Below are positions 20,484 through 42,393 of a stretch of 64,000 nucleotides of DNA, in pieces. The stretch is from NCBI GenBank assembly GCA_964512925.1, contig CAZEKH010000005.1, positions 4,325 to 68,324 on the forward strand, in the 5' to 3' direction. The DNA is from an uncultured Candidatus Saccharibacteria bacterium. GTDB taxonomy: Bacteria > Patescibacteriota > Doudnabacteria > UBA920. The position numbers were made by a program, and so were the translations under genes. Each line of letters opens with the position of its first letter. Position 1 is the first letter of the stretch. The notes under the pieces were generated by a model, which worked only from the letters and a program-made list of their open reading frames with translations, was not told the DNA's origin and did not search any database.

Positions 20484-20495
20484 TGATGTGTTTTA

Positions 20496-22367: not shown

Positions 22368-24641
22368 ATGAGCAAACAGCAAATCTCATGCAAAGTCGGC
22401 GACAACGACTATGTTTTTGAAATTGGTCAGATAAAAACCCAGGCCAATGCCGGGGTAATAGCCCGTGTTGGCGACACTATGGTTTTAGCCACTACGGTAA
22501 TGTCCGACAAATCAAGAGAGGGAATAGATTTTTTCCCGCTTTTGGTTGATTATGAAGAAAGACTTTACGCCGCAGGAAAGATCAAAGGCAGTCGCTGGAT
22601 AAAAAGAGAAGGCCGGGCTACTGACGACGCTATACTAAAGGGGCGGGTGATTGACAGAACTTTGAGACCAATGTTTCCGGAAGGAATGCGCAATGATGTG
22701 CAGATAGTCGCCACCGTGTTGTCCATTGACGGGGTAAATGAACCAGATATGGTAGCGGTTAACGCGGCTTCTATGGCTTTGACTATTTCCGATGTGCCTT
22801 TTGACGGGCCTGTGGCAGCTGTGAGAGTTGGGAAAGTGGATGGTAAATATATAGTAAATCCGACTCACGAACAGCAGGAGGTTTCTTCTATGGACCTGAT
22901 AGTTTGCGGTACTTCAGACCATATCATAATGGTTGAGATGGGAGCAAAGCTTGTTTCTGAAGAGGAGATAGTGGAAGGAGTAAAGTTTGCCCAAACTCAT
23001 TTGGCTGTTTTGGTTAAATGCCAGTTGGATTTTGCAAAGCAGGTAGGCAAAGCCAAATCTGAGCCAATAATAGTCAAGCCAAATGAACAGGTTTACGAAA
23101 AAGTCAAAAGCTTTTTGACAGAAGAGAAGATTGAAGCCGCAGTTTATGTGCAAAATATGTATGAGCGCGATGAAAAAACCGCAAAGCTTTTTAAAGAAGT
23201 AGCTGAATTTGCCAAAAAGGAATTGGGAAGCATAGAGGGGGTCAGTGTGGAGAAAGAAGCCAATGCGGTAGCGGATAAAATTTTGAAAAAATATCAGCAA
23301 AAACAGATTTTGGAAAAAGAACGGAGAGTTGACGGCAGAAAGCTGACAGAAACCCGTCCGATTTTCTGCGAAGTCGGGGTACTGCCTCGCGTTCACGGTT
23401 CTGCTATCTTTACCCGTGGAGAAACTCAGGCTTTAACTACTGTGACTTTGGGAAGCCCTGGCGACGAACAAATGCTTGACGGAATGGAAGACCCGACAGA
23501 TGGACGTTCCAAGCGCTACATTCACCACTATAACTTTCCTGGCTACAGCGTTGGCGAGGTAGCTCCTTTAAGGGGTCCGGGCAGGCGTGAGGTTGGACAC
23601 GGTATGCTGGCTGAACGGGCTGTGGAAGTGGTGGTGCCGGAAAAAGAAGCTTTTCCTTATACTTTGCGACTGGTTTCAGAAATTATGTCTTCTAACGGGT
23701 CAACTTCAATGGCTTCTACTTGCGGTTCGACTTTGGCGCTTATGGACGCTGGCGTGCCTATCAAGCACATCATCGGCGGGTGCGCTATGGGTTTGGTAAT
23801 GGACGAGTCGGATACCAGTAAATACAAAGTTTTAACCGACATTGCCGGCATTGAGGACTTTAACGGGCATATGGATTTCAAAGTGACCGGTTCTGAAGAA
23901 GGCGTTACCGCCCTCCAGTTGGATATAAAAGTAAAAGGTTTGACTTGGCAGATTTTGGAAAAAGCTTTAGAGCAGGCTAAGCCAGCGCGCAACCATATAA
24001 TCGGGAAAATGAAAGAAGCGCTTCCCGCACCAAGAGCGGAAATGTCTCCTTACGCGCCAAGGATTGTTTCGTTTAAGATTAAGCCTGACAAAATCCGCGA
24101 AGTTATCGGTAGCGGTGGAAAAACTATAAACGAAATTATTGCAAATTGTCCTGGCGTTAAAATTGACATTGAAGATGACGGCTTGGTGATGATTACTTCA
24201 ACTGACTCAGAAAGCAGCAAAAAAGCTGTTGAGTGGGTACAAAATATAGTCAAAGAAGTTCAGCCTGGAGAAATTTATGATGGCAAAGTTACGAGGCTAA
24301 TGGACTTTGGCGCCTTTGTGGAAGTTTTGCCAGGAAAAGAAGGTTTGGTTCATATTTCCCAACTTGCCAATTACCGTGTTGCCAGGGTGGAAGACGTTGT
24401 CAATGTTGGCGATGCGCTGAAAGTCCAAGTTTCAGAGATTGACGAGCAGGGTAGGATCAACCTGACCCACAAACCCTTTGCGCCTGAGCCTACCCCAGAA
24501 CAGCTGGCCAAGTCCCAAAGTGGAGACTTTCATTCCAGCGGTGGTAGTCGTGGCGGTTTTGGTTCAAGACCTGGCGGCCACTCCCGCGGCGGGTTTGGCT
24601 CCCGTCCAAGCGGCCCCAGACCCCCGAGAAGAGACTATTAA
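22368..24641 (+). CDS. pnp: polynucleotide phosphorylase with Gly/Arg-rich C-terminal tail
   Basis: 757 aa; two RNase PH domains, KH and S1 domains; tail SGGSRGGFGSRPGGHSRGGFGSRP. Confidence 0.9.
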   Translation: MSKQQISCKVGDNDYVFEIGQIKTQANAGVIARVGDTMVLATTVMSDKSREGIDFFPLLVDYEERLYAAGKIKGSRWIKREGRATDDAILKGRVIDRTLRPMFPEGMRNDVQIVATVLSIDGVNEPDMVAVNAASMALTISDVPFDGPVAAVRVGKVDGKYIVNPTHEQQEVSSMDLIVCGTSDHIIMVEMGAKLVSEEEIVEGVKFAQTHLAVLVKCQLDFAKQVGKAKSEPIIVKPNEQVYEKVKSFLTEEKIEAAVYVQNMYERDEKTAKLFKEVAEFAKKELGSIEGVSVEKEANAVADKILKKYQQKQILEKERRVDGRKLTETRPIFCEVGVLPRVHGSAIFTRGETQALTTVTLGSPGDEQMLDGMEDPTDGRSKRYIHHYNFPGYSVGEVAPLRGPGRREVGHGMLAERAVEVVVPEKEAFPYTLRLVSEIMSSNGSTSMASTCGSTLALMDAGVPIKHIIGGCAMGLVMDESDTSKYKVLTDIAGIEDFNGHMDFKVTGSEEGVTALQLDIKVKGLTWQILEKALEQAKPARNHIIGKMKEALPAPRAEMSPYAPRIVSFKIKPDKIREVIGSGGKTINEIIANCPGVKIDIEDDGLVMITSTDSESSKKAVEWVQNIVKEVQPGEIYDGKVTRLMDFGAFVEVLPGKEGLVHISQLANYRVARVEDVVNVGDALKVQVSEIDEQGRINLTHKPFAPEPTPEQLAKSQSGDFHSSGGSRGGFGSRPGGHSRGGFGSRPSGPRPPRRDY

Positions 24642-24725: not shown

Positions 24726-26027
24726 ATGCCGTATTTTGAGATTTTGAAAAAAGCAGAACTCACCCCAGTCCTCTCTTTAGAAAATAGAGGGAGTGATATA
24801 TTCCCCCCCTCTTTAAGCAAAGAGGGCGAAGGGGGAGTTTTGGGAGCTAGGACGGGCATCATCCATACCGCGCACGGGGATATAAAGACCCCGGCGTTTT
24901 TGCCTATTGGCACCAAAGGCGCGGTAAAGGCTGTGACGGCGGAGGAGCTGAAGTTTTGGGGCGCGGACATCATCCTTGCCAATACCTACCACCTTTGGCA
25001 GCGTCCGGGCGACGCTCTCATATATAAAGCCGGGGGGCTGCATAAATTTATGAACTGGCAAGGGCCTATCTTTACTGACTCCGGGGGGTTTCAGGTTTTC
25101 TCGCTCGCAAAAATGAGAAAAGTTTTAGAATTGGGCGTGCTGTTTCAGTTTGATTTAGACGGCAGGCAGGAACTTTTGTCGCCGGAAAAATCCGTTGATA
25201 TCCAAGCTAACTTAGGCAGCGACATCTGCCTCATACTGGATGATTTTCCGGGATATCCTTGGACTTATGAGCGAAGCAAAGAATCCATTGAGCTTACAAA
25301 CCGTTGGGCTGAAAGGGCGATAAAGGAGCATAAGAGAATAGTGACTGATGGCGACCCCATTAACCCCGGCCAAAAGCTGTGGGGGATAGTTCAGGGCGCA
25401 TCTTTTCCGGACTTAAGGGAAATGTCGGCTAAAGCAATGGTTCAGTTTGGATTTGAAGGCTTTGCCATTGGCGGCGTGGCCGTGGGCGAACCTCACGAGG
25501 AGATGATGAAAGCTGTGGAGGTTACCATACCGCATTTACCGGAAAATGCCCCAAAACATCTTTTGGGCGTCGGAACGCCTTTTGACATTGTTCAGGCAGT
25601 AGCGCGTGGCTGCGATACTTTTGACTGCGTGATCCCGACTAGGGAAGCTAGGCATGGAAGACTCTATATAAATAACAAATATCAAATTTCAAATAACAAA
25701 GCAGACAACCTCTCCCTTTCTCCCTCCCCTCATGAGGGGAGGGAAGGGGTGGGGTTGCAGTTTGAAGGCTATAGTACCATCAATATCTTCAACGAAAAGT
25801 TTAAAGAAGATTTTTCCACCATAGACGATCAGTGCGATTGCTATTTGTGCCAGAACCATACCAAGTCTTACCTTAGACATTTGTTTCAAACTGGCGAGCC
25901 TTTGGCGACAAGGCTTGCAACTATGCACAACCTGAAATTTTATTTAAACTTAATGGCTAAAATCAGGAAATCCATCCAATATGATTATTTTGATGAGATG
26001 GTCTTAAACTACAAAGAAATTAAATAG
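24726..26027 (+). CDS. tgt: queuine tRNA-ribosyltransferase carrying two inserted palindromic elements
   Basis: 433 aa; 'LANTYHL', 'DSGGFQV', 'GFAIGG', Zn site CxCxxC..H (DDQCDCYLCQNH...HL). Confidence 0.85.
   Translation: MPYFEILKKAELTPVLSLENRGSDIFPPSLSKEGEGGVLGARTGIIHTAHGDIKTPAFLPIGTKGAVKAVTAEELKFWGADIILANTYHLWQRPGDALIYKAGGLHKFMNWQGPIFTDSGGFQVFSLAKMRKVLELGVLFQFDLDGRQELLSPEKSVDIQANLGSDICLILDDFPGYPWTYERSKESIELTNRWAERAIKEHKRIVTDGDPINPGQKLWGIVQGASFPDLREMSAKAMVQFGFEGFAIGGVAVGEPHEEMMKAVEVTIPHLPENAPKHLLGVGTPFDIVQAVARGCDTFDCVIPTREARHGRLYINNKYQISNNKADNLSLSPSPHEGREGVGLQFEGYSTINIFNEKFKEDFSTIDDQCDCYLCQNHTKSYLRHLFQTGEPLATRLATMHNLKFYLNLMAKIRKSIQYDYFDEMVLNYKEIK
24757..24840. repeat. nested palindromic element inside tgt codons ~12-39 (CCCCCCCTCTTTAAGCAAAGAGGGCGAAGGGGGAG with outer arms AACTCACCCC/GGGGGAGTT)
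   Basis: ~84 nt, multiple of 3, encodes LTPVLSLENRGSDIFPPSLSKEGEGGVL absent from Tgt orthologs as remembered. Confidence 0.65.
25706..25757. repeat. nested palindromic element inside tgt (CAACCTCTCCC..CCCTCCCCTCATGAGGGGAGGG..AGGGGTGGGGTTG)
   Basis: perfect 8-bp inner arms, ~11-bp outer arms; lies in a ~36-aa segment extra relative to E. coli Tgt. Confidence 0.65.
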
Positions 26028-26533: not shown

Positions 26534-27862
26534 ATGAGTGAAAATTTAAAAAAAAATCCAGGAGATATTTCTAACGGGATGGAAAAAATTGTCAGCCTCT
26601 GCAAGAGGCGGGGATTTGTATATCCGGGAAGTGAAATATACGGCGGGCTTGCTAACTCCTGGGACTACGGCCCCCTTGGAGTGGAACTTAAAAACAACAT
26701 CAAACAGCTGTGGTGGAAAAAGTTTGTCCAACAAAGGGACGACGTTGTGGGCTTGGACGCGGCTTTGATAATGAACCCCAAAGTTTGGGAAGCATCTGGC
26801 CACGTGGGAAATTTCAACGACCCAATGGTTGAGTGTAAAAATTGTCATGAACGGTATAGGGCTGACCATATAGATACTTCAAAGCCTTGCGCGAAATGCG
26901 GCAAAACTGTTTTTACAGAAAGCCAGCAGTTCAATATGATGTTTAAAACAAACCTGGGGCCAGTGGCGGATGAAAAATCTGTTGTTTACCTCCGTCCGGA
27001 AACCGCGCAGGGGATGTTTGTGAACTTTAAAAATGTTTTAAACACTTCCAGAAAGCAGCTGCCGTTTGGGATTGCCCAGATTGGTCCGGCTTTCCGTAAC
27101 GAGATTACGCCTGGAAATTTTATATTCCGCACCCGCGAGTTTGAGCAGATGGAAATTGAATTTTTTGTAAAACCCGAAGACTGGGAAAAGTGGTTTGAGT
27201 ATTGGCTTTCACAGCAAAAAGAGTGGCTTAAGGAATTGGGAATATTTGAGCAAGCTGTTTTTGTGGAAGTACCTGAAGCAGACAGGGCACACTATAGCAA
27301 GCGCAGCATAGACACCGAATACCTCTTTCCTTTTGGCCAGAAAGAACTTTATGGTTTGGCATATAGGACTGACTATGACCTAAAAGCCCATATGGAAAAG
27401 TCCGGTCAGAGTTTGGAGTATGTGGATCCCGTGACAGGGGAAAAAAGTGTACCACATTGCATTGAGCCTACTTGGGGCGTAAACAGAACCCTGCTTGCGG
27501 TTTTGTGTTCAGCTTACGACGAGTCTGACCCCGAAAATATAACTTTAAAACTTCCATACAAACTTGCACCTTACAAAGCCGCGGTTTTTCCACTTTTGAA
27601 AAACAAGCCGGAGTTGGTCTCTAAGGCAAAAGAAATTTACGACAGTTTGCGAAAAGATTTAACGGTTGCCTGGGATGACCGGGGCAACGTGGGAAAACGC
27701 TACTATAGTCAAGACGAAATTGGCACGCCCTTTTGCATAACTGTGGACTTTGACACCATAGAAAAAGACAATATGGTCACAGTTAGAAACCGCGACACCA
27801 AACAGCAGGAGAGGGTGAAGGTTGAGGAATTAAAGGAATATATTGTAAGGGAAATTAAATAA
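26534..27862 (+). CDS. glyQS: glycine--tRNA ligase (class II, alpha2 type)
   Basis: 442 aa; N-terminal 'RRGFVYPGSEIYGG...WDYGPLGVELK' GlyRS signature. Confidence 0.9.
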   Translation: MSENLKKNPGDISNGMEKIVSLCKRRGFVYPGSEIYGGLANSWDYGPLGVELKNNIKQLWWKKFVQQRDDVVGLDAALIMNPKVWEASGHVGNFNDPMVECKNCHERYRADHIDTSKPCAKCGKTVFTESQQFNMMFKTNLGPVADEKSVVYLRPETAQGMFVNFKNVLNTSRKQLPFGIAQIGPAFRNEITPGNFIFRTREFEQMEIEFFVKPEDWEKWFEYWLSQQKEWLKELGIFEQAVFVEVPEADRAHYSKRSIDTEYLFPFGQKELYGLAYRTDYDLKAHMEKSGQSLEYVDPVTGEKSVPHCIEPTWGVNRTLLAVLCSAYDESDPENITLKLPYKLAPYKAAVFPLLKNKPELVSKAKEIYDSLRKDLTVAWDDRGNVGKRYYSQDEIGTPFCITVDFDTIEKDNMVTVRNRDTKQQERVKVEELKEYIVREIK

Positions 27863-28161: not shown

Positions 28162-28467
28162 ATGAATGAAGGCAAAAACAAGATAACATCAGAAATTTTT
28201 TGGGAAAGTTTTCAAACCAAAAATCCTGAATTAAAAAAGTGCCTCGCAGACCTTGATGCTTATCTGCAAGTAGTTGATTTTGATCAAGTTTCAGAAATTG
28301 ACAAAGAAAGATTTGTGGAGCTAAAAACTTCCATAAGTCAATTTATTGCAGATAAAGAAATACAACACGATCGGGAGGAGTTTGTTGATACTTGGACAAA
28401 AGAATTTGAAGAATTACAACAAAAATATGGAACACCAAAGGTTGCGGCAACTTCAGCAGGAAATTAA
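28162..28467 (+). CDS. hypothetical protein
   Basis: 101-aa acidic ORF. Confidence 0.3.
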   Translation: MNEGKNKITSEIFWESFQTKNPELKKCLADLDAYLQVVDFDQVSEIDKERFVELKTSISQFIADKEIQHDREEFVDTWTKEFEELQQKYGTPKVAATSAGN

Positions 28468-29635
28468 ATATCCTATTTTAGTAAAGAAAAAAGAAAACCT
28501 GGCCTATTTGACTGGCGAGGTTTTTGATTTGCGGACACAGGAGTATCTTTTGGTAAAACCGCTGAAGTACGCGGATAAACGCGGAAGCTATACAGGGGTT
28601 GTTGGGTTTGGCAGCGGTCTGGAAAAAATTTCCTGGGCGCCAAAGTCGGACACTTTATACAACATCGGAAAATATGTGAAAGGCTATGAGAAGTTAAATC
28701 TTGAATATGGGTTTACTTTGGGGGAACATAAGTACATAAAAAGCAAGATCAAGAATTTGAGATTGCAGGTAAAAGTCCAGCCGGAACATTCTCCGGTGGA
28801 TGAGATAAGGCAGATAAAGACCCCGGATGAAATATTGAAGATTAAAAAATCAATGGAAATAGTTAAACAGGTATACAAGTATACTAGGAAGCAAGCGGTG
28901 AAGAGCGGGATGACGGAAGCAATTTTGGCAAAATACATTGAAAATTTGGGTTTAAAGTTGGGGGCAGGCGAGCTGGCGTTTCCGGCCATAGTAGCAAGCG
29001 GTAAGAACGCGGCAATGCCACACCACGTACCTACGAAAAAAAGGTTGAAGCCGGGTGAAAGCATTATTTTGGATTTTGGTTTTTTGGCCGGAGGCCAATC
29101 CGCCACTGGCGGAAAATCTTCATCTAACTACTGCAGCGATTTTACTCGTACGGTTTTTATCAAAAAAGTTCCAAAAAAGCTGGAAATAGCTTATAATCAG
29201 GTGGAGAAAGCTTATTTAGGGAGTATGGAATACATTAACTCCCCCAACCCCCGCCCGAACGCCGCAGGCGGGCAGGCCTCTTTGAAAAAGAGGGAAAAAT
29301 TCACCATCTCCTCCTCTTTGACAAAGAGGAGGCAGGGAGGAGTTCGTGCAGAGGGTGTTTACCAAAAATCAGTCGAGATTTTAGCCGAAAAAAAACTGGA
29401 TAAATATTTTATCCACTCGCTTGGCCATGGTACCGGCCTTGAGATCCACGAAAGGCCTTATTTGGGTCCAAAGTCAAAAGACATTTTAAAAGAAGGAATG
29501 GTTTTCAGTATAGAACCTGGCGTGTATTTTCCCGAGTATGGAGGGGTTCGGATAGAAGATTTGGTCTATATGGAAAATGGAAAAGTAAAAAAATTTATAG
29601 AAGTACCAACAGATTTAAAGTCTAATATTTTATGA
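28427..29635 (+). CDS. M24 family metallopeptidase (Xaa-Pro aminopeptidase-like) with in-frame palindromic insertion; start uncertain (ORF opens at 28346)
   Basis: 'HSLGHGTGLEIHERP', 'FSIEPGVY', 'VRIEDLV' M24 metal-ligand motifs. Confidence 0.65.
   Translation: MEHQRLRQLQQEIKYPILVKKKENLAYLTGEVFDLRTQEYLLVKPLKYADKRGSYTGVVGFGSGLEKISWAPKSDTLYNIGKYVKGYEKLNLEYGFTLGEHKYIKSKIKNLRLQVKVQPEHSPVDEIRQIKTPDEILKIKKSMEIVKQVYKYTRKQAVKSGMTEAILAKYIENLGLKLGAGELAFPAIVASGKNAAMPHHVPTKKRLKPGESIILDFGFLAGGQSATGGKSSSNYCSDFTRTVFIKKVPKKLEIAYNQVEKAYLGSMEYINSPNPRPNAAGGQASLKKREKFTISSSLTKRRQGGVRAEGVYQKSVEILAEKKLDKYFIHSLGHGTGLEIHERPYLGPKSKDILKEGMVFSIEPGVYFPEYGGVRIEDLVYMENGKVKKFIEVPTDLKSNIL
29237..29344. repeat. composite palindromic element inside the M24 peptidase gene (three hairpins: CCGCCCG..CGGGC, CCTCTTTGAAAAAGAGG, CCTCCTCTTTGACAAAGAGGAGG; outer arms AACTCCCCC/GGGAGGAGTT)
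   Basis: 108 nt (36 codons) encoding NSPNPRPNAAGGQASLKKREKFTISSSLTKRRQGGV. Confidence 0.65.
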
Positions 29636-31877: not shown

Positions 31878-31888
31878 TTGTTAAATTT

Positions 31889-31925
31889 CCTCTCCAAGTT
31901 TGGAGAGGGGTTAGGGGAGAGGTTG
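31889..31925. repeat. nested palindromic element (CCTCTCCAAGTTTGGAGAGG + GGTTAGGGGAGAGGTTG) whose 3' arm supplies the SD for the next gene
   Basis: GGGGAGAGG ends 7 nt before the ATG at 31930. Confidence 0.65.
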
Positions 31926-31929
31926 TTGT

Positions 31930-32277
31930 ATGAAACGCAAGCCATATTTAGTACATAACGCAAAAAATTTAAGAACGCGTTCAACTATATGGGAAACAAA
32001 ACTTTGGCAATATTTGAGAGGCGGTAGATTTTTTGATTATAAATTTAAAAGACAAGTTGCTATAGAAAAGTATATCGTAGATTTTTGTTGCAATGAAAAA
32101 AAGTTGATCATTGAGTTGGATGGGAGTGGATATCAATTTTCAGAAAAAGATAAAATTCGTGATAAATTTTTTGAAGGGCTAGGTTATAAAATCTTACGTA
32201 TTTGGAATAATGATATTGACAATAATTTTGACGGGGTTCCATTAAGAATTAAACAAAATTTCGATGAAAAAAAATAA
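31930..32277 (+). CDS. DUF559/Vsr-like endonuclease-domain protein
   Basis: 115 aa; 'FKRQVAIEKYIVDFCC...LIIELDGSGY...RDKFFEGLGYKILRIWNND' matches the DUF559 restriction-endonuclease-like fold pattern. Confidence 0.6.
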   Translation: MKRKPYLVHNAKNLRTRSTIWETKLWQYLRGGRFFDYKFKRQVAIEKYIVDFCCNEKKLIIELDGSGYQFSEKDKIRDKFFEGLGYKILRIWNNDIDNNFDGVPLRIKQNFDEKK

Positions 32278-32283
32278 ACAAAA

Positions 32284-32329
32284 ACAACCTCTCCAGGCCT
32301 CCGGCCACCCTCCCCAAACTTGGGGAGGG
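32284..32329. repeat. palindromic element (CAACCTCTCCAGGCCTCCGGCCA + CCCTCCCCAAACTTGGGGAGGGG) immediately 5' of nfo
   Basis: GGGGAGGGG arm lies ~9 nt upstream of the ATG giving MAVGCHVSAAGG. Confidence 0.65.
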
Positions 32330-32338
32330 GAAAGCGGT

Positions 32339-33388
32339 ATGGCTGTGGGTTGTCATGTTTCTGCGGCAGGCGGAGTGTGGAATGCGCCGAAGAATGCAAA
32401 GGATTTAAACTGCGAAACTTTCCAGATATTTACCCGTCCGCCTATGGGCGGACCTGCGCCGAAAATAGACCAGGAGGGAGTAGAGAAATTTAAGATGGAG
32501 ATGGAGAAGTATTATTCTTCATTCCATACAGAAGATGCAGAACCCCTCCCAACCTCCCCTTTGGTAAAGGGGAGGGGTAAGGTAGGTTCCCCCTCTTTTT
32601 CAAAGAGGGGGTTAGGGGGAGTTGGTTTTGTTGTTCACTGCCCGTACATTGTAAATTTTGGTTCAGCAAAGAAAACTACTTTTCACGGATCTATTTCTAT
32701 AGTTTCTGAAGAACTAAAAAGGGCTAATTCGCTTGGAGCTCGGTTTGTTATGACTCACTTAGGCAGCTTTAAGGATTTGGGCCAGGAAAAAGGTATGGTG
32801 CAGGCGCAAAAAGGTTTGGAAGAGGTTTTAAAAAAGTACGAAAGTTCTATAAAAAACAAACAGCCCTCCCAATTTCTTTTAGAGATAGCGGCAGGACAAG
32901 GTGAAGTTATAGGTGATACTTTTGAGGAACTGGCCGAGCTTATGGAGCCGCTAAAAAAATACAAAACTTTCGGGGGAATCTGCTTTGACACTCAGCATGC
33001 TTGGTCTTCGGGATATGATATAACCAAAAGCGAATGGGTAAAACAATTTGAGAAGACTATTGGCCTAAAATGGCTGCGGATGAGCCATATAAACGACTCT
33101 AAAGTTGATTTAGGCGGCAAAAAAGACCGTCACGAGCATATTGGCGAGGGGAAGATAGGAGAAAAGGGGATATATAATTTTATTCGAAATTTAAAATTGA
33201 ACCTGCCTGTCGGCAAGGCAGGGATTGAAGATTTAAACACCCTCTCTACCCGAAGCGGGTCCCTTCTCTCCCAGAAGGGAGAGATTAATAATGTTGTCTT
33301 TGACTCTTTTGCCTTGATTTTAGAAACTGAACATGATAAAGTGAAAACAGACATAAAAATCTTAAAAAAATTAAGGGAAAAAATATAA
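32339..33388 (+). CDS. nfo: endonuclease IV (AP endonuclease family 2) with two in-frame palindromic insertions; longer ORF opens at 32264
   Basis: 'VGCHVSAAGGV', 'ICFDTQHAWSSGYD', 'RMSHINDSK..DRHEHIGEGKIG', 'ALILETE' match Nfo metal-ligand blocks. Confidence 0.8.
   Translation: MAVGCHVSAAGGVWNAPKNAKDLNCETFQIFTRPPMGGPAPKIDQEGVEKFKMEMEKYYSSFHTEDAEPLPTSPLVKGRGKVGSPSFSKRGLGGVGFVVHCPYIVNFGSAKKTTFHGSISIVSEELKRANSLGARFVMTHLGSFKDLGQEKGMVQAQKGLEEVLKKYESSIKNKQPSQFLLEIAAGQGEVIGDTFEELAELMEPLKKYKTFGGICFDTQHAWSSGYDITKSEWVKQFEKTIGLKWLRMSHINDSKVDLGGKKDRHEHIGEGKIGEKGIYNFIRNLKLNLPVGKAGIEDLNTLSTRSGSLLSQKGEINNVVFDSFALILETEHDKVKTDIKILKKLREKI
32541..32625. repeat. double-hairpin element inside nfo (CCTCCCCTTTGGTAAAGGGGAGG and CCCCCTCTTTTTCAAAGAGGGGG)
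   Basis: 85 nt encoding PLPTSPLVKGRGKVGSPSFSKRGLGGVG between conserved KY..S and (I/V)xxH..Y(L/I)xN(L/F)G blocks. Confidence 0.7.
33201..33288. repeat. triple-hairpin element inside nfo (CCTGCC..GGCAGG, ACCCGAAGCGGGT, TCTCTCCCAGAAGGGAGAGA)
   Basis: ~88 nt encoding LPVGKAGIEDLNTLSTRSGSLLSQKGEI, extra relative to E. coli Nfo between GEGxIG and ILETI blocks. Confidence 0.6.
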
Positions 33389-33896: not shown

Positions 33897-33955
33897 AACA
33901 AAACCCCCTCCTAGCCTCCCCCATTTAGGGGAGGAAGGGTATAGGGGTTTTTGTT
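33897..33955. repeat. long imperfect palindromic element (AAAACCCCCTCCTAGCCTCCCCCATTTAGGGGAGGAAGGGTATAGGGGTTTT) followed by T-run; probable terminator
   Basis: inner CCTCCCCC/GGGGGAGG arms, outer AAAACCCC/GGGGTTTT arms. Confidence 0.55.
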
Positions 33956-35535: not shown

Positions 35536-37131
35536 ATGAATAGATTTTACCTTACAACCACCCTTCCATACGTAAATTCAGACCCTCACTTGGGGTTTGC
35601 TTTGGAAATGGTTTTGGCGGACACAATAGTTCGGTTTCAAAAATTGCAGGGTAAGGAAGTTTTTTTTAATACAGGCACAGACGAGCATGGTCTTAAGATA
35701 TATCAAAAAGCTTTAGAACGAGGTATAAGCCCAAAAGAGTACTGCGACGAATATGCAGAAAAATTTAAACAGCTGATGCCAGCTTTGGGGGTTTTGCCGG
35801 AGATACATTTCATACGCACCACGGACGAACACCATATAAAAGCCTGTCAGGAGTTTTGGAAACTGGTAGATAAAAATGGCTACATAGAAAAGAAAAATTA
35901 TAAGGTCAAATATTGCGTTGGCTGCGAGCTGGAAAAAACTGAAAGCGATCTGTCAGAAGAAGGAAAATGTTTAGTGCACCCGCATTTGGAAATAGAGATT
36001 CGCGAAGAGGAAAATTATTTTTTTAAGTTTAGCGCTTTCCAAAAACCGCTTTTAGAACTTTATGAAAAACAGCCGGATTTTGTTGTGCCGGATTTTCGGT
36101 TTAACGAGATTAGAGAGTTTGTAAAAAATGGACTTTCTGACTTTTCTATCTCGCGGCTTAAAGAAAAAATGCCCTGGGGCGTGCCTGTGCCGGGCGACGA
36201 CAACCACGTTATGTATGTCTGGTTTGACGCGCTTATAAACTATGTTTCAACGTTGGGTTGGCCAGAATACCACCCCTTTAATTCCCCTCCTATTTTAGGA
36301 GGGGAGGGCCAGAATGGCGGGGAGGTTAGTAATTTATTTCAAGAATTCTGGGGGACAAAAGAAAACCCTAACGGAATACAAATTGCAGGCAAGGACAACC
36401 TCCGTCAGCAGTCTGCTATGTGGCAGGCAATGCTTATGGCTGCGGGCCTGCCGAACAGTAAACAAATCATCATCCACGGCTTTATTAACTCCGGGGGGCA
36501 GAAAATGTCCAAATCTTTGGGCAATGTAGCGGATCCTTATAAAATAATTGAAGATTTAAAAATAAAAGGATTGAATAAACAACAGGCGACAGACGCGCTT
36601 CGGTATTATTTACTCAAAGAAATTCCTACTTTTGAAGACGGGGACTACACTTGGGATAGGTTTTTGGAAGTCTATAACTCCGACCTTGCCAACGGCATTG
36701 GCAACCTAACAAGTAGGATTTTGAAAATGAGCATAGCTAATTCAATTTTTCTCTCTCCAGGCGTGGAGAGAGTCCCCGACTCGTCCGCCAAAGCTTTAGC
36801 GGAGGAGGAAGGGGGAGAGAGGTCGCATGATAGTAATTCCCCAAACGATCAAAAAATTAAAGAGTTTATTTCCTCTTACCACTTAAAACTCGCTCTTGAA
36901 GAAATCTGGAAAGATATAAAATTCTGCGATGAATACATTCAAAAAGAAGAACCATTTAAAGTCGTTAAAGTAGACCCGGAAAAAGCAAAAAAGCAGATAG
37001 AGTTTTTACTTGGTAAACTAAAAGAGATAGCAGAAAACCTGCAGCCGTTTTTACCAGACACTTCCCAGCAAATAACAAACAGTTTAAAACCGCTTTCGGG
37101 AGAAATTCCACGGTTGTTTCCGAGGATATAA
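35536..37131 (+). CDS. metG: methionine--tRNA ligase (short form) with two in-frame palindromic insertions
   Basis: 531 aa; 'TTTLPYVNSDPHLG' HIGH-type motif, 'KMSKSLGNV'. Confidence 0.9.
   Translation: MNRFYLTTTLPYVNSDPHLGFALEMVLADTIVRFQKLQGKEVFFNTGTDEHGLKIYQKALERGISPKEYCDEYAEKFKQLMPALGVLPEIHFIRTTDEHHIKACQEFWKLVDKNGYIEKKNYKVKYCVGCELEKTESDLSEEGKCLVHPHLEIEIREEENYFFKFSAFQKPLLELYEKQPDFVVPDFRFNEIREFVKNGLSDFSISRLKEKMPWGVPVPGDDNHVMYVWFDALINYVSTLGWPEYHPFNSPPILGGEGQNGGEVSNLFQEFWGTKENPNGIQIAGKDNLRQQSAMWQAMLMAAGLPNSKQIIIHGFINSGGQKMSKSLGNVADPYKIIEDLKIKGLNKQQATDALRYYLLKEIPTFEDGDYTWDRFLEVYNSDLANGIGNLTSRILKMSIANSIFLSPGVERVPDSSAKALAEEEGGERSHDSNSPNDQKIKEFISSYHLKLALEEIWKDIKFCDEYIQKEEPFKVVKVDPEKAKKQIEFLLGKLKEIAENLQPFLPDTSQQITNSLKPLSGEIPRLFPRI
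36268..36327. repeat. palindromic element inside metG (CCCCTCCTATTTTAGGAGGGG) flanked by 8-bp direct repeat GCCAGAAT
   Basis: encodes FNSPPILGGEGQNGGEVS; GCCAGAAT at ~36261 and ~36309. Confidence 0.6.
36749..36822. repeat. composite element inside metG (CTCTCTCCAGGCGTGGAGAGAG, CCGCCAAAGCTTTAGCGG, G-rich tail AGGAGGAAGGGGGAGAGAGG)
   Basis: 74 nt encoding LSPGVERVPDSSAKALAEEEGGERS. Confidence 0.55.
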
Positions 37132-38163: not shown

Positions 38164-39219
38164 TTGTCAATGCTAATCGACACCCACGCTCACATTAACT
38201 TTAAAGCTTATGAAGACGACGCAGAGGAAGTTTTGCGCAGGGCTTTTGAGAGTGGGGTTATGGTTATAAACGTGGGGACGCAGTTGGACACTTCAGAGCA
38301 GTCTGTTAGGCTTGCTGAGAGGTACTCTAAAAAAAATATCCCTCCTCACTCCTCCCTTAATTTAAGGGAGGAAGCAGCACAATTACCCCCTCTTAAGGTA
38401 AGAGGGGGTCAGGGGGGTGATATTAAGGCGGTTTATTCCGTAGTTGGACTTCATCCCGTTCATACTTACTCCCAGCACGTAGACGAAGAAGAGAGTCATT
38501 TTAAAACGCGGGAAGAAAAGTTTGACTATGAGGCGTATAAAAAATTGGCACAAAATGATTTGGTGGTGGGGATTGGGGAATGTGGACTTGATTATTTTAG
38601 ATTGAAGATTGATGATTTAAGATTGCCAATAGAACAAATTAAAGAAAATCAGAAACAGGCATTTATGCAACAGGTGAGGCTGGCAAAGGAACTAAACAAA
38701 GCTTTGGTCATACACTGTAGGCCTTCGGAGGGGACGAGTGATGCGTATGAAGATATACTGGCAATTCTGGATTCAGAATTGCAAATTTCAAATATCAAAT
38801 TACAAAATTCAACAAACTCCGCTACACCCTCTACCCTAAACCCTAATCCCTTTCGTTTTGAGATCCACTCTTTTACTGGTACCCCCGACATAGTCCAAGA
38901 GTTTTTAAAGCGTGGCGCGTATGTGGGGCTAAATGGTATAATTACATTCGGAGACCGAAAATCAAAAAATATAGCGACGTCCGCCTCGGGCGGAGATAAG
39001 AGTGGAAACATGGACAATGTTTTGAAAACTGTCCCTTTAGACCGTATTGTCCTTGAAACTGACAGCCCGTATCTTACGCCAAAACCAAACCGGGGCAAAA
39101 GAAACGAGCCTTCCTATGTCCGTTTTGTTGCCGAACATATTGCTCAAGTAAAAAATATAGATTTTGCCCAAGTCGAAGAGCAAACCACAAAAAACGCAAT
39201 TAATTTGTTTAAGTTATAA
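38164..39219 (+). CDS. tatD: TatD-family metal-dependent DNase/hydrolase with in-frame palindromic insertion
   Basis: 351 aa; 'IDTHAHIN', 'VGLHP', 'IGECGLDY', 'ALVIHCR', 'LETDSPYL' TatD blocks. Confidence 0.8.
   Translation: MSMLIDTHAHINFKAYEDDAEEVLRRAFESGVMVINVGTQLDTSEQSVRLAERYSKKNIPPHSSLNLREEAAQLPPLKVRGGQGGDIKAVYSVVGLHPVHTYSQHVDEEESHFKTREEKFDYEAYKKLAQNDLVVGIGECGLDYFRLKIDDLRLPIEQIKENQKQAFMQQVRLAKELNKALVIHCRPSEGTSDAYEDILAILDSELQISNIKLQNSTNSATPSTLNPNPFRFEIHSFTGTPDIVQEFLKRGAYVGLNGIITFGDRKSKNIATSASGGDKSGNMDNVLKTVPLDRIVLETDSPYLTPKPNRGKRNEPSYVRFVAEHIAQVKNIDFAQVEEQTTKNAINLFKL
38335..38424. repeat. nested double-hairpin element inside tatD (CTCCCTTAATTTAAGGGAG, CCCCCTCTTAAGGTAAGAGGGGG; outer arms AATATCCCTCC/GGGGGGTGATATT)
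   Basis: 90 nt = 30 codons encoding KKNIPPHSSLNLREEAAQLPPLKVRGGQGGDIKA between RYS and VYSVVGLHP. Confidence 0.7.
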
Positions 39220-39774: not shown

Positions 39775-42393
39775 ATGTCAAGTAGATATAATCCACAGAA
39801 AATTGAAACTAAGTGGCCCTCCTACGCTAAAGCTACGAAGGGCAGGCAAAAGGTTTCTAAATATAAACCCCAGGAAATTGAACGTAAGTGGCAGTCACTG
39901 TGGTTTAAGAAGAAGCCTTTTTCTGCTGTGGAAAATAAGAGAAAGAAAAAATACATTTTAGTTGAGTTTCCTTACCCTTCGGGAGCGGGTTTACATATGG
40001 GGCACTTAAGGCCGTATGTGGCGGCAGATGTAACTGCTAGGTTTTTGCGCCTTACCGGGCATGAGGTTTTGTTTCCTATGGGCTGGGACGCGTTTGGGCT
40101 GCCGGCGGAAAACTACGCCATAAAAATGGGAGTGCACCCGACCATAACCACCAAGAAAAATGTGGCGAACGCAAAAAAACAAATGTTGTCGTGGGGGCTT
40201 TCTTTTGACTGGAAAAGGGAGATAAACACAACTGACCCTAACTACTACAAATGGACGCAGTGGTTGTTTTTGCAATTTTTCAAAAAAGGTTTGGCGTTTG
40301 AAAAAACCGGACTTATAAACTGGTGTCCAAAAGACAAGACAGGGCTTGCCAACGAAGAAGTAATAGACGGCAAATGCGAACGCTGCGGAACAGTAGTTGA
40401 AAAAAAAGAACTTCGCCAATGGTACCTAAAAATCACAGACTACGCTGAGAAATTATTAGCTGGTCTAAAGGATTTAACCGAATGGCCTGAAGCAGTCAAG
40501 CTTCAGCAGGAAAATTGGATAGGGAAAAAGACGGGCATAAACATTACATATGAGATTGAAGGTAAAAACAAAACAATAACTTGTTTTACCACGCGTCCTG
40601 ATACTAATTTTGGCGCAACTTTTATCGTTATTGGTCCTGAGCATCCTTTGATACAGCAAAATGAACTTGGTATTCAGAACTATGACGAAGTTAAAAGGTA
40701 TATCGAAAAAGCAAAGGAACAGACTGAGCAAGACAGGACTGCGGAGAATCGCAAAAAAACAGGAGTCTTTACTGGGCTATATTGCATAAATACTTTAAAT
40801 AACTACAAGATGCCTTTGTATGTAGCAGATTATGTTCTTGGAAATGTGGGCACAGGGGCTGTGGTCGGGGTGCCTGGGCACGACAAACGGGATTTTGAGT
40901 TTGCGCAAGTTTTTGGTATTGAAGTAAAAAGAGTTGTGCAAAAAAATGTAGACGATACTGGAATTATTGACCATATAGACAAGGTTCAAGAAGAAGAAGG
41001 GAAGATGGTAAATTCCGGTTTCTTAAATGGGCTTGATATTCACGAGGCCACTGAGAAAATAATGGACTATATGGAAAGTGAGGGTTATGGTAAAAGAGTT
41101 ACCAACTACAAACTCCGTGACTGGGTGTTTTCGCGCCAGCGTTACTGGGGAGAGCCGATACCTTTAATTCATTGCGATCCGCCAGCTGGCGGATGTGGCG
41201 TTGTGGCTGTACCGGAAAAAGATTTACCGGTTAAACTTCCAAATGTAAAAAAATACGAACCGACGGGAACAGGAGAGTCGCCGCTGGCTGGCATAGACAA
41301 ATGGGTAAATACCAAATGCCCGAAGTGCAAAGGCCCGGCTAAAAGGGAAACCAACACCATGCCTCAGTGGGCGGGCAGCTCGTGGTATTGGCTTAGGTAT
41401 TTGGACCCTAAAAATACCAAAACTTTTTCCGACATAAAAAAACAGAAATATTGGACACCGGTAGATGTGTATTTTGGCGGGATGGAACACACGACTTTAC
41501 ATTTGCTTTATTCACGTTTTTGGAATTTGTTTTTATACGACCAAAAGCTGGTTACAGAAAAAGAACCTTACAAGAGGCGTTTTCCGCACGGGATAATTTT
41601 GGGCCCAGATGGGGAAAAAATGTCTAAGAGTAGAGGCAACGTGGTGGATCCGCAGAAATTGGTCAAAGAATTTGGCGCTGACGCGGTACGTATGTATCAG
41701 CTGTTTTTAGGTCCTCACGGGGATATGATTGCTTGGAATGACCAGGGGATAGTCGGAGTGAAAAGGTTTTTGGATAGAGTTTGGAGTTGGGCACAGCAAT
41801 TGAATATTGAAGATATAAGATTGAAGATTGTAGACAGTGAGATAGTAGAACGGGAGATAAACAAACTGGTTAAGAAAATCACTGAGGACTTGGAAGCAAT
41901 GCGGTTTAATACCTGTATTTCGGCTTTTATGTCGTTTTTAAATGAAGTCAAAGACGAGCAAGTGTCTTTAGAAACAGTTAGAAAGTTTTTGATTCTTTTG
42001 AGCCCGTTTGCGCCGCATATTGCTGAAGAACTACTTGAGAGAGTTAGAGAGTTAGAGAGTAAGAGGGTGAGTAGATCAGTTAATCAGACAATCAGTAAAT
42101 CAGAAAGTCAGAAAGTCAAAACAAAACTCCCTCCAACCCCCTCTTTGTCAAAGAGGGGGAGCAAGGGGGAGTTCGCAGAGTGGCCTCAGTGGGACGAGAG
42201 TAAAATTTTAGAAGCTACAGCAGAGATCATCGTCCAGGTTAACGGCAAAGTCAAAGGCAAGGTAGTTGTGCCAAACCAAAGCAGTGAAGAAGTGGTAAAA
42301 GAAGCTATGCTGAAACTCCCGCAGTTTTCGTCTCTTGGTGAAATAAAAAGAACAATCTATGTGCCCAATAGACTTATTAACTTAGTTATTTAG
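39775..42393 (+). CDS. leuS: leucine--tRNA ligase; start uncertain (ORF opens at 39667)
   Basis: 'PYPSGAGLHMGHLRPY' HIGH motif, 'GEKMSKSRGNVVDP' KMSKS, CP1 editing domain, C-terminal 'QVNGKVKGKVVV'. Confidence 0.9.
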   Translation: MSSRYNPQKIETKWPSYAKATKGRQKVSKYKPQEIERKWQSLWFKKKPFSAVENKRKKKYILVEFPYPSGAGLHMGHLRPYVAADVTARFLRLTGHEVLFPMGWDAFGLPAENYAIKMGVHPTITTKKNVANAKKQMLSWGLSFDWKREINTTDPNYYKWTQWLFLQFFKKGLAFEKTGLINWCPKDKTGLANEEVIDGKCERCGTVVEKKELRQWYLKITDYAEKLLAGLKDLTEWPEAVKLQQENWIGKKTGINITYEIEGKNKTITCFTTRPDTNFGATFIVIGPEHPLIQQNELGIQNYDEVKRYIEKAKEQTEQDRTAENRKKTGVFTGLYCINTLNNYKMPLYVADYVLGNVGTGAVVGVPGHDKRDFEFAQVFGIEVKRVVQKNVDDTGIIDHIDKVQEEEGKMVNSGFLNGLDIHEATEKIMDYMESEGYGKRVTNYKLRDWVFSRQRYWGEPIPLIHCDPPAGGCGVVAVPEKDLPVKLPNVKKYEPTGTGESPLAGIDKWVNTKCPKCKGPAKRETNTMPQWAGSSWYWLRYLDPKNTKTFSDIKKQKYWTPVDVYFGGMEHTTLHLLYSRFWNLFLYDQKLVTEKEPYKRRFPHGIILGPDGEKMSKSRGNVVDPQKLVKEFGADAVRMYQLFLGPHGDMIAWNDQGIVGVKRFLDRVWSWAQQLNIEDIRLKIVDSEIVEREINKLVKKITEDLEAMRFNTCISAFMSFLNEVKDEQVSLETVRKFLILLSPFAPHIAEELLERVRELESKRVSRSVNQTISKSESQKVKTKLPPTPSLSKRGSKGEFAEWPQWDESKILEATAEIIVQVNGKVKGKVVVPNQSSEEVVKEAMLKLPQFSSLGEIKRTIYVPNRLINLVI
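42036..42173. repeat. composite insertion in leuS 3' region: tandem GAGAGTTA and AATCAG/AAGTCAG repeats followed by nested palindrome AACTCCCTCC..CCCCCTCTTTGTCAAAGAGGGGG..GGGGGAGTT
   Basis: encodes ERVRELESKRVSRSVNQTISKSESQKVKTKLPPTPSLSKRGSKGE between conserved APHIAEEL and WPxWDE blocks. Confidence 0.65.

Follow-up and report, generated by a model that had tools for sequence, protein, structure and literature searches.

The window, i.e. the whole 64,000-nt stretch of DNA analysed here, raises the question of how a strongly folded triple hairpin comes to lie inside the coding frame of a conserved peptidase gene, and whether it is translated there. The host gene (28427..29635; this and all other features given here are on the + strand) encodes a 402-aa M24 family Xaa-Pro dipeptidase/aminopeptidase. 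Its match to Pfam PF00557 (E 3.2e-48) is broken into two stretches at the insert, and a pita-bread catalytic domain is evident from PF00557 together with Foldseek, in which the AF2 model aligns with prolidases at TM 0.78-0.82 (normalised by target). The protein is 100% identical to a protein on one NCBI contig, and several orthologs at ~50-56% identity carry the NCBI name Candidatus Doudnabacteria. We consider it likely that the 108-nt triple hairpin is an RPE-like mobile palindrome of the MITE type, in frame, translated and tolerated in the M24 peptidase; that the insert is translated with the gene is itself probable, judging from the intact reading frames.

Both the sequence and its predicted fold bear out the earlier note's description of three hairpins with bracketing arms at 29237..29344, 108 nt or 36 codons long in the host frame. 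This family-A element opens with the 5' pyrimidine arm of a closing stem (AACTCCCCC, 29237..29245) and ends with its 3' purine arm (GGGAGGAGTT, 29335..29344, including GGAGGAGTT at 29336-29344), as determined by inverted-repeat analysis and folding; AACTCCCCC and GGAGGAGTT are complementary at 8 of 9 positions, and in the fold the closing stem juxtaposes the two ends of the insert. Enclosed by it are hairpin 1 (CCCCCGCCCG...CGGGCAGG, 29248..29276), an additional module relative to the two-hairpin consensus that has a counterpart, CCGCCCGAAGGGCGG, in elements of the L008 and L014 loci; hairpin 2 (CCTCTTTGAAAAAGAGG, 29277..29293, 7 bp); and hairpin 3 (CCTCCTCTTTGACAAAGAGGAGG, 29310..29332, 10-11 bp). 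The latter two have the pyrimidine arm first, and hairpin 3 shares a 22-nt match (95%) with a copy in the LeuRS gene at 42140-42161. Folded as RNA, the element has an MFE of -46.3 kcal/mol; dinucleotide shuffles give -32.8 +/- 3.7 (z = -3.65), and 0 of 200 are as stable; GC over the insert is 0.53-0.58 (100-nt windows) versus 0.405 in the entire window. The reverse complement of the 5' arm, GGGGGAGTT, occurs 5 times in the window versus 0.54 expected. The ORF runs uninterrupted through the element, with the translation NSPNPRPNAAGGQASLKKREKFTISSSLTKRRQGGV; peptides predicted at the junction of the insert or within it include AYLGSMEYINSPNPRPNAAGGQASLK and EKFTISSSLTK. An intrinsic terminator was considered and rejected: none of the in-gene elements received a call as a terminator-like site, and no such tail follows the 108-nt element. 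We also dropped, as a defining property, the idea that the homopurine/homopyrimidine arms keep the elements open in all six frames by design, which is weakly supported and not general: 4 of 6 frames are open in the 108-nt copy versus 1.8 expected (P 0.04), and the hairpin loops with ...TTTGA... bring a TGA stop into one frame.

The insert lies between the Y-C-S-D-F-T-R-T and HSLGHGTGLEIHE blocks and ends 24 residues before HSLGHGTGLEIHE, i.e. between conserved M24 blocks upstream of the metal site, where the earlier note had placed it. Residues D216, D238, H334, E363 and E377, which we take, from what is established for M24 enzymes, to be the metal ligands, do not vary across an alignment of 35 sequences, so that the catalytic residues stay in register across the insert. 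Structure comparison shows that solved prolidases have no equivalent segment, query residues 263 to 299 corresponding to 251 to 255 of 1wn1. In the AF2 model the insert is a low-confidence loop joining two helices; pLDDT falls below 50 precisely at the three inserts of this protein (at residues 279-303 within the 108-nt insert), and the remaining fold is prolidase-like. The model suggests that the insert-encoded residues are probably surface-exposed and disordered.

A comparison of M24 orthologs separates filled from empty sites. Ten orthologs are empty, with exactly 165 nt from the YCSDFTRT to the HSLGHG motif, while 18 (window copy included) carry an additional 33 to 135 nt at this position; all 18 inserts are strong palindromes, multiples of 3 and stop-free, and the chance of 18 out of 18 inserts being in frame is ~3e-9. 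The loop varies in 69 of 121 orthologs. At least four unrelated palindrome families are found at the site, outgroup lineages are empty, and the element families are interleaved on the M24 tree. The earlier note's reading of an in-frame palindrome at a permissive position agrees with this alignment, and the finding that would have spoken against it, palindrome-free orthologs with a loop of equal length, is the reverse of what we see, their loop being 32 codons shorter. Its notion of a discrete 108-nt insert holds for the palindrome but not for the net gain: compared with empty orthologs, the site is longer by 96 nt (32 codons). Five loop codons of the empty orthologs are replaced by the palindrome and one further codon, which leaves the insertion boundaries approximate. 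Nucleotide identity of same-site copies across genomes is 0.57-0.73, versus 0.64-0.75 for the surrounding gene, a similarity that fits old inheritance and recurrent insertion alike. Apparent internal stops in four M24 loci proved to precede the true start codon or to fall where a contig ends. What goes beyond the earlier note is a dispersed element family, other palindromes at the same loop, two more inserts in the M24 gene, and an association with DUF559 genes.

The two further M24 inserts are smaller. One, 'AGGQSATGGK' (29083..29115), lies between the D-x-G and Y-C-S-D motifs and adds 11 aa that most orthologs and the PDB homologs lack, with a fold z of -3.7 and pLDDT <50 at residues 224-232; it is a degenerate relative of a 34-nt family-C palindrome, of which intact copies (TTTCCGCCAAAGGCGGATCCGCCTTTGGCGGAAA) occur in L003, within a few residues of the same position, and elsewhere at different positions and in different genes, and three orthologs have 'SAGGGSAFGG/SASGG' at the same site. 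The other, 'LKYADKRGS' (28562..28588), is not palindromic in the window copy but occupies a hot spot that is filled in 56 of 121 M24 orthologs (pLDDT <50 at residues 49-51).

Elements of the same kind are dispersed through the window, with at least ten related copies in ~18 kb, located in other genes (TGT, endonuclease IV, MetRS, TatD, LeuRS) or in spacers. The tRNA-guanine transglycosylase (TGT) gene has two: a family-A two-hairpin element in its N-terminal part (24757..24840; 26 aa longer here than the orthologs, fold z -5.6), and an element ACAACCTCTCC...GGGGTGGGGTTG at 25704..25761 (E 3e-4), a hot spot filled in 10 of 30 orthologs; this and the E values that follow are from a covariance model, R1, built from six copies with the M24 copy left out and with 24757..24840 among its seeds. 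Family-A two-hairpin elements found by the R1 search lie in the endonuclease IV-type (AP_endonuc_2) gene (32541..32623) and in a TatD-type DNase gene (38335..38420), and a family-A one-hairpin element lies near the C-terminus of the LeuRS gene (42124..42173, E 2e-7). The MetRS gene carries a hairpin element with the insert 'PPILGGEGQNG' (36269..36327, E 0.019) and a hairpin-rich insert between the catalytic and anticodon-binding domains (36751..36820); an intergenic copy at 33902..33952, a weak match (E 0.31), is followed by a T-rich run. The copies share 17-23-nt modules and architecture without full-length identity, and no part of the M24 insert longer than 23 nt has a second copy within the window; the likeness in modules rather than over the full length does not amount to a demonstration of recent transposition in this genome.

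Although the M24 copy was left out of R1, the model finds it at E 5.4e-9 / 1.7e-7. R1 gives 77 matches in 689 kb of Doudnabacteria DNA versus 5 in 708 kb of control DNA from other bacteria, and 23 of 26 distinct sites are inside long ORFs. Across 113 lineage-specific insertions the median fold z is -2.8, versus -0.12 for control segments; a conserved 23-aa insert in GlyRS served as a non-palindromic control. In L014, three different genes carry copies of ~140 nt, and in one of these two extra palindromes are nested. Of the in-ORF copies, 12 have a match that begins with AAC; 7 of them are in phase 0 and 5 in phase 1, and since the same terminus is read in two phases, the element is defined at the DNA level and not as a peptide module. 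On the coding strand, exact GGGGAGTT exceeds AACTCCCC, an excess that is also present, more weakly, in control DNA. No direct repeat indicative of a target-site duplication was found in the 6-nt flanks of the 26 sites, a weak negative given that the boundaries are uncertain.

The stems of the family change as pairs: across six copies, 11 of 26 stem pairs are doubly changed with the pyrimidine-first polarity kept, and G-U and C-A mismatches are about equal in number, which does not tell RNA-level from DNA-level structure. Paired change is what would be expected if the sequence were kept for a nucleic-acid structure useful to the host (a translation pause, mRNA stability, a protein-binding or recombination site), with coding being incidental, and this explanation, which is compatible with a mobile origin, is also consistent with the elements being better conserved (0.57-0.73) than third codon positions of the host genes (0.38-0.53) and with Shine-Dalgarno-like purine arms such as GGGGAGAGG. 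We nevertheless regard it as unlikely: ten orthologs manage without the insert, others have unrelated palindromes in its place, and the covariation may stem from the needs of mobility rather than from a host function.

It is also decidedly unlikely that nothing moved at all, i.e. that a hypervariable loop expanded in place through slippage, repair templated by hairpins or amplification of a short seed palindrome, or that the K/R/G/S/P-rich segment is an adaptive protein loop. The variability of the loop among orthologs would fit such growth, as would the mosaics of short modules that make up the window copies and the lack of visible target duplication; in addition, the empty site of L011 already contains a short palindrome-like ...AAAGCCGGAGTT..., which resembles the element ends and could act as a seed. 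Local growth would not, however, place the same multi-hairpin sequences in unrelated genes of one genome and across genomes, in intergenic positions and around DUF559 genes, nor would it lead a model built from other copies to the M24 copy, and the reading of the family-A terminus in two frames argues against selection for a particular peptide.

The conservation of frame bears on another alternative, an intervening sequence that is cut from the mRNA, with hairpins guiding cleavage and ligation, or bypassed by the ribosome in the manner of T4 gene 60 and mitochondrial 'byp' elements, to give a protein without the 36 residues. The closing stem does unite the ends of the insert, and introns are known to be numerous in the rRNA and tRNA genes of CPR bacteria (PMC13011429). 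Removal or bypass would put no constraint on length or on stop codons, so that the 18 of 18 stop-free, in-frame inserts at the M24 site count against it, as do all large genic indels between L008 and L081 (85% nucleotide identity), where palindrome differences of 114, 108, 180 and 126 nt are all stop-free multiples of 3. Among ortholog instances, 316 of 321 keep one frame; the five frame changes are in three MAGs, and we rejected them as evidence of excision, for they look like simple indels or assembly errors away from the element ends. The exception in favor of removal is a +1 shift inside the element of the L014 LeuRS gene (20410-20556), in a MAG that has other simple frameshift errors at the same locus. 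At gathering threshold, Rfam finds 4 tRNAs and nothing else in the entire window; a permissive search of 29150-29430 returned chance-level microRNA and plastid matches only, with no intron or other Rfam family at the insert even at E<=5, and 108 nt is far below ribozyme size. No stop codon and no matched take-off/landing codon pair is present at the ends of the insert. A self-splicing intron, an intein and a bypass element were each rejected, there being no ribozyme core, intein motifs or take-off/landing pair with an in-gap stop in this uninterrupted ORF; 36 aa is far below even mini-intein size. Splicing is very unlikely on the frame statistics, and we give the intervening-sequence explanation as a whole very little credence. 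An artefact of assembly or binning (for instance a chimeric inverted repeat) has a negligible chance of being the correct explanation: the source is a MAG, and amplified or mis-assembled data can yield palindromes, but this insert is in frame in an intact conserved gene, and dozens of independent assemblies, made in different projects and on different sequencing platforms, contain equivalent elements at this site and elsewhere.

A mobile palindrome tolerated in frame has a precedent in the RPEs (Ogata et al. 2000 Science 290:347; Ogata et al. 2002; summarised in PMC10969869), which are likewise small palindromic repeats, present in many genomic copies, that lie in frame in unrelated housekeeping genes of a reduced-genome bacterium, leave the ORF intact as fold-compatible fusions, and have intergenic copies too. 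RPEs are about 100-150 bp with one conserved peptide, in a fixed frame, per family (PMC10969869), whereas the Doudnabacteria elements are read in phases 0 (7) and 1 (5) and thus use two frames or more, are built from modules (1-3 or more hairpins, 33-250 nt in all), stand out as GC-rich against an AT-rich genome, have pyrimidine-first hairpins, are sometimes nested, and belong to different families that repeatedly fill the same ortholog loops; repeated filling of the same loops by unrelated palindromes is not reported for RPEs in the review PMC10969869. We therefore liken the element to RPEs by its apparent mode of action, without classing it as a member and without expecting a sequence relationship. 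With bacterial MITEs (Correia/NEMIS, ERIC, BOX, Nezha; PMC10969869) it shares terminal inverted repeats, small size (< ~300 bp), multiple copies and the lack of coding capacity or a transposase ORF; in-frame intragenic copies of MITEs are occasional (PMC10969869), whereas an intragenic location is the rule here, and no target-site duplication is seen at the 26 sites. REP/REPIN-RAYT systems (Bertels & Rainey 2011, PMC3116915, PMC3337134) have in common with these elements short, hairpin-forming, non-autonomous dispersed repeats and a small single gene flanked by repeats, proposed to be the mobiliser in trans, but REPs are predominantly extragenic, in contrast to the 23 of 26 sites inside ORFs. 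In the searchable literature, we found no description of in-gene palindromic elements of CPR/Patescibacteria or of the family-B terminus GTCATTGCGAG.

As for how the elements spread, the mechanism we infer is as follows. Each copy is a non-coding palindrome in which a AACTCCCCC-like 5' arm, rich in pyrimidines, and a GGGGGAGTT-like 3' arm, rich in purines, enclose one to three hairpins with all-pyrimidine 5' arms. The elements would land across Doudnabacteria genomes, genes included, and genic copies would survive selection only if they are a multiple of three, stop-free in the host frame and placed in a tolerant loop. The present element would be transcribed and translated together with the M24 gene, the peptidase gaining a probably disordered loop of 32-36 residues between two outer helices, at a distance from the dinuclear metal site, which is unaltered.

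In-frame 'selfish DNA' in proteins has had Rickettsia as its main case since 2000, and it now extends to an unrelated, uncultivated CPR lineage, at higher density. The repeatedly filled loops map out, in nature, where essential enzymes tolerate insertions, and the elements explain much of the length variation among Doudnabacteria orthologs (344 to 419 aa for M24). Inserts rich in P/S/R/G/K are expected to break profile matches, as in the split Pfam M24 match, and could mislead gene calling.

A candidate for the enzyme behind the elements is encoded within the window. Between the stop codon of the M16 peptidase gene and the start of the endonuclease IV gene is a DUF559 unit (31878..32354; PF04480 E 1.7e-33), in which a hairpin and the purine arm GGGGAGAGGTTGT precede the ORF (31930-32277), and the pyrimidine arm ACAACCTCTCC and hairpins follow it. 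In L001, L004, L007, L013, L018 and L019 the M16 peptidase and endonuclease IV-type genes are 5-19 nt apart, and since these neighbors otherwise abut, the DUF559 unit is an insertion between them. What else fills this spacer in other genomes is ordinary genes (NUDIX and others) and not further nuclease units. The DUF559 domain is very common and has no assigned role; its genes are variably present, and at differing positions, in syntenic genomes. Hairpins and arms bracket 8 of the 8 copies examined, and in 80 metagenomic DUF559 loci the number of pyrimidine-first hairpins is 2.30/kb within 150 nt of the ORF versus 0.13/kb elsewhere; an exact inverted repeat of at least 9 nt spans the ORF in 35 of 69 loci versus 7 of 69 when shuffled.

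The bracketing resembles that of RAYT transposase genes among REPINs, and for this reason DUF559 may be the mobilising or homing partner of the hairpin elements; it is the only candidate enzyme we have. In place of the RAYT gene (an IS200-like HUH/Y1 transposase) there is a Vsr-like PD-(D/E)xK endonuclease of PF04480, and no transposase, RAYT or RT domain was found in the 63 of 72 window ORFs scanned, i.e. all except the last 9, in the ribosomal-protein/EF-G region. A diversity-generating retroelement target, which calls for a template repeat that differs at A positions and for a reverse transcriptase close by, was rejected, with no second copy of the insert of >23 nt in the window and no RT among the 63 ORFs. 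The DUF559 profile matches 3hrl (1e-28) and the catalytic domain of the EDxHD homing endonuclease I-Bth0305I (PDB 3r3p, E 3.5e-5; Taylor et al. 2011, PMC3239194), which resides in a group I intron, whereas the DUF559 genes are free-standing, intergenic and palindrome-bracketed, without intron or intein. As possible MITE parents, DUF559 units have the same arms and hairpins but encode an endonuclease and not a known transposase, and their arm order (purine arm, ORF, pyrimidine arm) is opposite to that of the small elements, which are therefore not simple internal deletions of the unit. Circular or tandem molecules in which the right end meets the left would account for the swapped order.

If this EDxHD-type, Vsr-like protein does mobilise the elements, the result would be a REPIN-RAYT-like system with an RPE-like life inside coding sequence. 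We put forward tentatively, as a possibility that falls short of being probable, that free-standing DUF559 genes and their bracketing pyrimidine-first palindromes form an undescribed, widespread REPIN-RAYT-like mobile system driven by a PD-(D/E)xK nuclease, whose small non-autonomous members, fit for coding sequence, would time and again lengthen essential enzymes of Doudnabacteria (probably of other CPR as well) by new loops at the same permissive positions and would be a major source of protein-length variation. No function of DUF559 in repeat mobility was found in the searchable literature, and the domain is a testable candidate. Purine arms resemble Shine-Dalgarno sequences, as with GGGGAGAGG, 8 nt before the DUF559 start codon. 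An intact DUF559 copy such as that at L002 9599-9949 reads ELDGSQH; in the window copy, Tyr replaces a His that is conserved in the other copies (ELDGSGYQ).

The 108-nt element at 29237-29344 lies within the M24 metallopeptidase gene (28427-29635, + strand; 402 aa; Pfam PF00557, E 3.2e-48), and its in-frame translation is NSPNPRPNAAGGQASLKKREKFTISSSLTKRRQGGV. Its termini, AACTCCCCC and GGAGGAGTT, are complementary at 8 of 9 positions and bracket three hairpins (29248-29276, 29277-29293 and 29310-29332); the fold reaches -46.3 kcal/mol, with z = -3.65 relative to dinucleotide shuffles, and 0 of 200 shuffles were equally stable. Over the insert, composition windows of 100 nt have a GC of 0.53-0.58 vs 0.405 for the window as a whole, and the match to the Pfam M24 profile is interrupted where the insert sits. 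The in-frame triple hairpin described in the earlier note is a real feature.

Occupancy of the M24 site was measured at DNA level as the number of nucleotides separating YCSDFTRT from HSLGHG, which needs no gene calling. We retrieved 80 genomic loci, each with flanks of 10 kb (L numbers below denote these loci), ~35 of which resemble Doudnabacteria and share synteny with the window; the M24 protein of the window is 100% identical to a protein on an NCBI contig, and several orthologs of ~50-60% identity are named Candidatus Doudnabacteria (CPR/Patescibacteria). Ten genomes have an empty site, with a spacing of exactly 165 nt; in eighteen the spacing is longer by 33 to 135 nt, the window included at +96. 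All 18 extra lengths are multiples of three, stop-free and fold as palindromes with a closing stem; the chance probability of 18 out of 18 in frame is ~3e-9. The proposal that the insert is a palindromic element is supported by these empty and filled sites, since empty orthologs have the 165-nt spacing rather than an equally long loop lacking a palindrome. Were the element instead cut from the RNA, or skipped by ribosomal bypass, no frame or stop constraint would follow, and the strict constraint observed makes this very improbable. Read as an in-frame palindromic insertion, the element represents a net gain of 96 nt, not 108; the palindrome plus one codon replaces five ancestral loop codons, and the exact insertion boundaries are for this reason unreadable at this divergence.

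The M24 site has received at least four unrelated insert families. Family A, AAC(T/C)CCCC...GGGGGAGTT, is found in the window, L001, L003, L006, L008, L029 and L031; family B, GTCATTGCGAG...CTCGCAATGAC, in L009, L010, L015, L019 and L028; a family B variant, GTCATYCCG..., in L004, L005, L017 and L021; four inserts are singletons. Families and the empty state are interleaved on the M24-core tree and distant lineages are empty; therefore this loop has been colonised repeatedly. Family B, translated as ...SLRG...ARNDK..., also occurs at other sites in other genomes (e.g. L008 18004-18123), and a GTCATCCCGA variant exists; its terminus was found in the searchable literature only as primers.

The 120 best M24 orthologs are 344-419 aa long, and their alignment resolves into a core of ~345 aa plus insert hot spots: after core column 45 (filled in 56 of 121 sequences), at ~columns 208-211 (6 sequences), after column 254, the site of our element (69 of 121), and, more rarely, after columns 101 and 339. 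At the column-45 hot spot the window carries a further variable insert, 'LKYADKRGS' (28562-28588), and orthologs often have ...NTDKKR.../...HADSNA..RG-type peptides. Where solved prolidases have 3 residues at our insert, the window protein has ~35. An AlphaFold2 model built from the ortholog alignment (mean pLDDT 80.8) superposes on prolidases with TM ~0.8; pLDDT drops under 50 over the three inserts (residues 49-51, 224-232 and 279-303) and over 331-340. For our element the model gives coil between helices 250-271 and 308-320, which we take to lie on the outer face of the pita-bread fold, away from the metal site. D216, D238, H334, E363 and E377 are invariant across a 35-sequence alignment, and the catalytic residues thus remain in register, a check proposed in the earlier note.

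Related elements are present elsewhere in the window, in the genes for TGT (24757-24840; 25704-25761), an endonuclease IV-type enzyme (32541-32623), MetRS (36269-36327; 36751-36820), a TatD-type DNase (38335-38420) and LeuRS (42124-42173), and between genes (32284-32352; 33902-33952). GGGGGAGTT occurs 5 times in the window vs 0.54 expected, and the hairpin CCTCTTTnnnAAAGAGG 4 times vs 0.06. Six two-hairpin copies, drawn from four genes in three genomes, share one architecture, in which 11 of 26 pairs have double changes that preserve both the pairing and the 5'-arm pyrimidines. A covariance model seeded with these six copies, none of them the M24 element, matches that element at E 5e-9, and at E<=1 it returns 77 matches in 689 kb of Doudnabacteria DNA vs 5 in 708 kb from loci of other phyla. 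At E<0.01, 23 of 26 distinct sites fall inside long ORFs, a share close to the window coding fraction of 0.89, so the elements show no avoidance of genes. The in-ORF copies starting with AAC are read in phase 0 (N-S-P) in 7 cases and phase 1 (x-L-P) in 5; with two reading phases in use, the inherited unit is therefore the DNA and not the peptide. The intergenic family-A-like hairpin at 33902-33952, which follows the gene at 33421-33723 and runs directly into TTTTTGTTTTTT, could be a transcription terminator; it is absent from the calls of a simple terminator scan.

Comparisons of genomes point to dispersal. L008 and L081 share 85% nucleotide identity, and palindromes present in one are absent in the other: 114 nt in M24, 108 nt in TGT, 180 nt in endonuclease IV and 126 nt in TatD, all multiples of three; the TatD element of L081 and the M24 element of L008 belong to the same family. 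L014 has three copies of a ~140-nt element, ACTCCAACCACCCCG...GGGGAGGGGGTTGGAG, each in a different gene, the TGT copy holding two more nested palindromes, and a fourth copy lies in the endonuclease IV gene of another genome. Family C is a 34-nt perfect palindrome, TTTCCGCCAAAGGCGGATCCGCCTTTGGCGGAAA ('SAKGGSAFGGK'), found at several sites and in several genes; the M24 insert of the window at 29083-29115 ('AGGQSATGGK') is a degenerate relative, and three orthologs have a matching 'SAGGGSAFGG/SASGG' peptide at that site.

Across ten syntenic gene families there are 113 lineage-specific insertions of at least 8 aa; at DNA level they fold with a median z of -2.8 and have a GC of 0.52, vs -0.12 and 0.45 for segments drawn at random from these genes. 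The internal negative control is a conserved GlyRS insertion of 23 aa, with a fold z near 0; this non-palindromic insertion (A-L-P-x-M-K-V-E-G-K...) occurs in about half of the orthologs of the window GlyRS gene (26534-27862) and weakly matches Pfam GlyRS_ins_1 in the L081 product. Perfect hairpins of at least 8 bp number 339 in Doudnabacteria loci vs 54 after shuffling, with a genic density of 0.364/kb vs 0.162/kb in control loci; those with an all-pyrimidine 5' arm outnumber purine-first ones 74 to 4 (13 to 8 in controls). A frame change was seen in just 5 of 321 ortholog instances, in three MAGs, at apparent simple indels (L014 12551 and 19062; L019 9011-9029 and 13035-13054; L021 9032-9071). 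Being simple indels off the element ends, these are probably assembly or sequencing errors, with the exception that the L014 LeuRS shift falls inside an element, and frame arguments from these three assemblies call for caution.

Among known systems, the elements resemble Rickettsia palindromic elements (RPE), which are in-frame, tolerated, translated palindromes in housekeeping genes (PMC10969869); ours are probably translated too, but they differ in lineage, modularity, variable reading frames and the lack of a conserved peptide; by this analogy they appear to work like RPE without being members of RPE families. REPIN-RAYT systems also have a gene flanked by its own repeats (PMC3337134), a layout similar to that of the DUF559 gene described below, but the Doudnabacteria elements are intragenic and tied to another enzyme class. 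MITEs share terminal inverted repeats, small size and many copies, but no target duplication was seen and no transposase parent was found for our elements. The M24 element matches no Rfam family and is not followed by a terminator-like tail; there is no template repeat in the window, and neither a reverse transcriptase nor a transposase was found among the 63 of 72 window ORFs scanned. The literature that could be searched yielded no description of such elements in CPR bacteria.

A lead to how they might move comes from a DUF559 (Vsr-like/EDxHD-type endonuclease) ORF (31930-32277; PF04480, E 1.7e-33), with which the elements are associated. The DUF559 profile matches PDB 3hrl (1e-28) and also I-Bth0305I (3r3p, 3.5e-5), an EDxHD homing endonuclease, in agreement with published classifications (PMC3424549, PMC9403480); in the window copy, Tyr replaces the conserved His (ELDGSGYQ). 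The ORF is variably present in 7 syntenic loci, at differing positions, and the surroundings of the gene are alike in 8 of 8 Doudnabacteria copies: upstream, a pyrimidine-first hairpin and a purine arm (CCTCTCCAAGTTTGGAGAGG-GGTTA-GGGGAGAGGTTGT in the window), and downstream, the complementary pyrimidine arm and at least one hairpin (ACAACCTCTCC...CCCTCCCCAAACTTGGGGAGGG). In the window this 477-nt unit (31878-32354) is an insertion that parts the M16 peptidase gene from the endonuclease IV gene; in six other genomes 5-19 nt lie between the two. The L022 DUF559 gene has downstream of it an element of the family to which the in-gene M24 element of L008 belongs. Among 80 metagenome loci, pyrimidine-first hairpins reach 2.30/kb within 150 nt of the DUF559 ORF vs 0.13/kb elsewhere; 35 of 69 loci have an exact inverted repeat of at least 9 nt spanning the ORF, vs 7 of 69 shuffled, and the arms around metagenomic ORFs are mostly homopurine or homopyrimidine. 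The arm order at the ORF is purine then pyrimidine, opposite to that of the small elements; a small element therefore corresponds to the right end of the unit joined to its left end, not to an internal deletion. We tentatively suggest that DUF559 might mobilise the elements or home into them, a reading we hold to be possible though somewhat doubtful; a mobile system that may be new, and that can be tested, would then underlie the palindromes.

Several other features were observed. The LeuRS genes of L014 (19556-20039), L015, L019 and L081 have an in-frame, non-palindromic insertion of ~160-190 aa, absent from the window LeuRS, resembling an alpha/beta serine hydrolase domain, with a GHSLG/GHSFGG motif and a weak Pfam Ser_hydrolase match (L081 product); L025 LeuRS has a non-palindromic 129-aa in-frame insert instead. 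At its end, the PNPase gene (22368-24641) has an Arg/Gly-rich tail (24530-24641, ...SRGGFGSRPGG...) that is GC-rich (<=0.77), non-palindromic (z -0.4) and missing from most orthologs. A strong hairpin at 37816-37865 (-29.5 kcal/mol in 50 nt; CGGCGGAG...CTCCGCC around GGGCTTGTTGCAACAAAAGCCC) stands at the start of a 113-aa ORF without a Pfam match, between two genes. Within the ParB gene (47534-48538), a GC-rich stretch (0.64-0.67) at 48287-48442 with the hairpin TCCATCCGCAGGCGGATGGA may be another in-frame insert.
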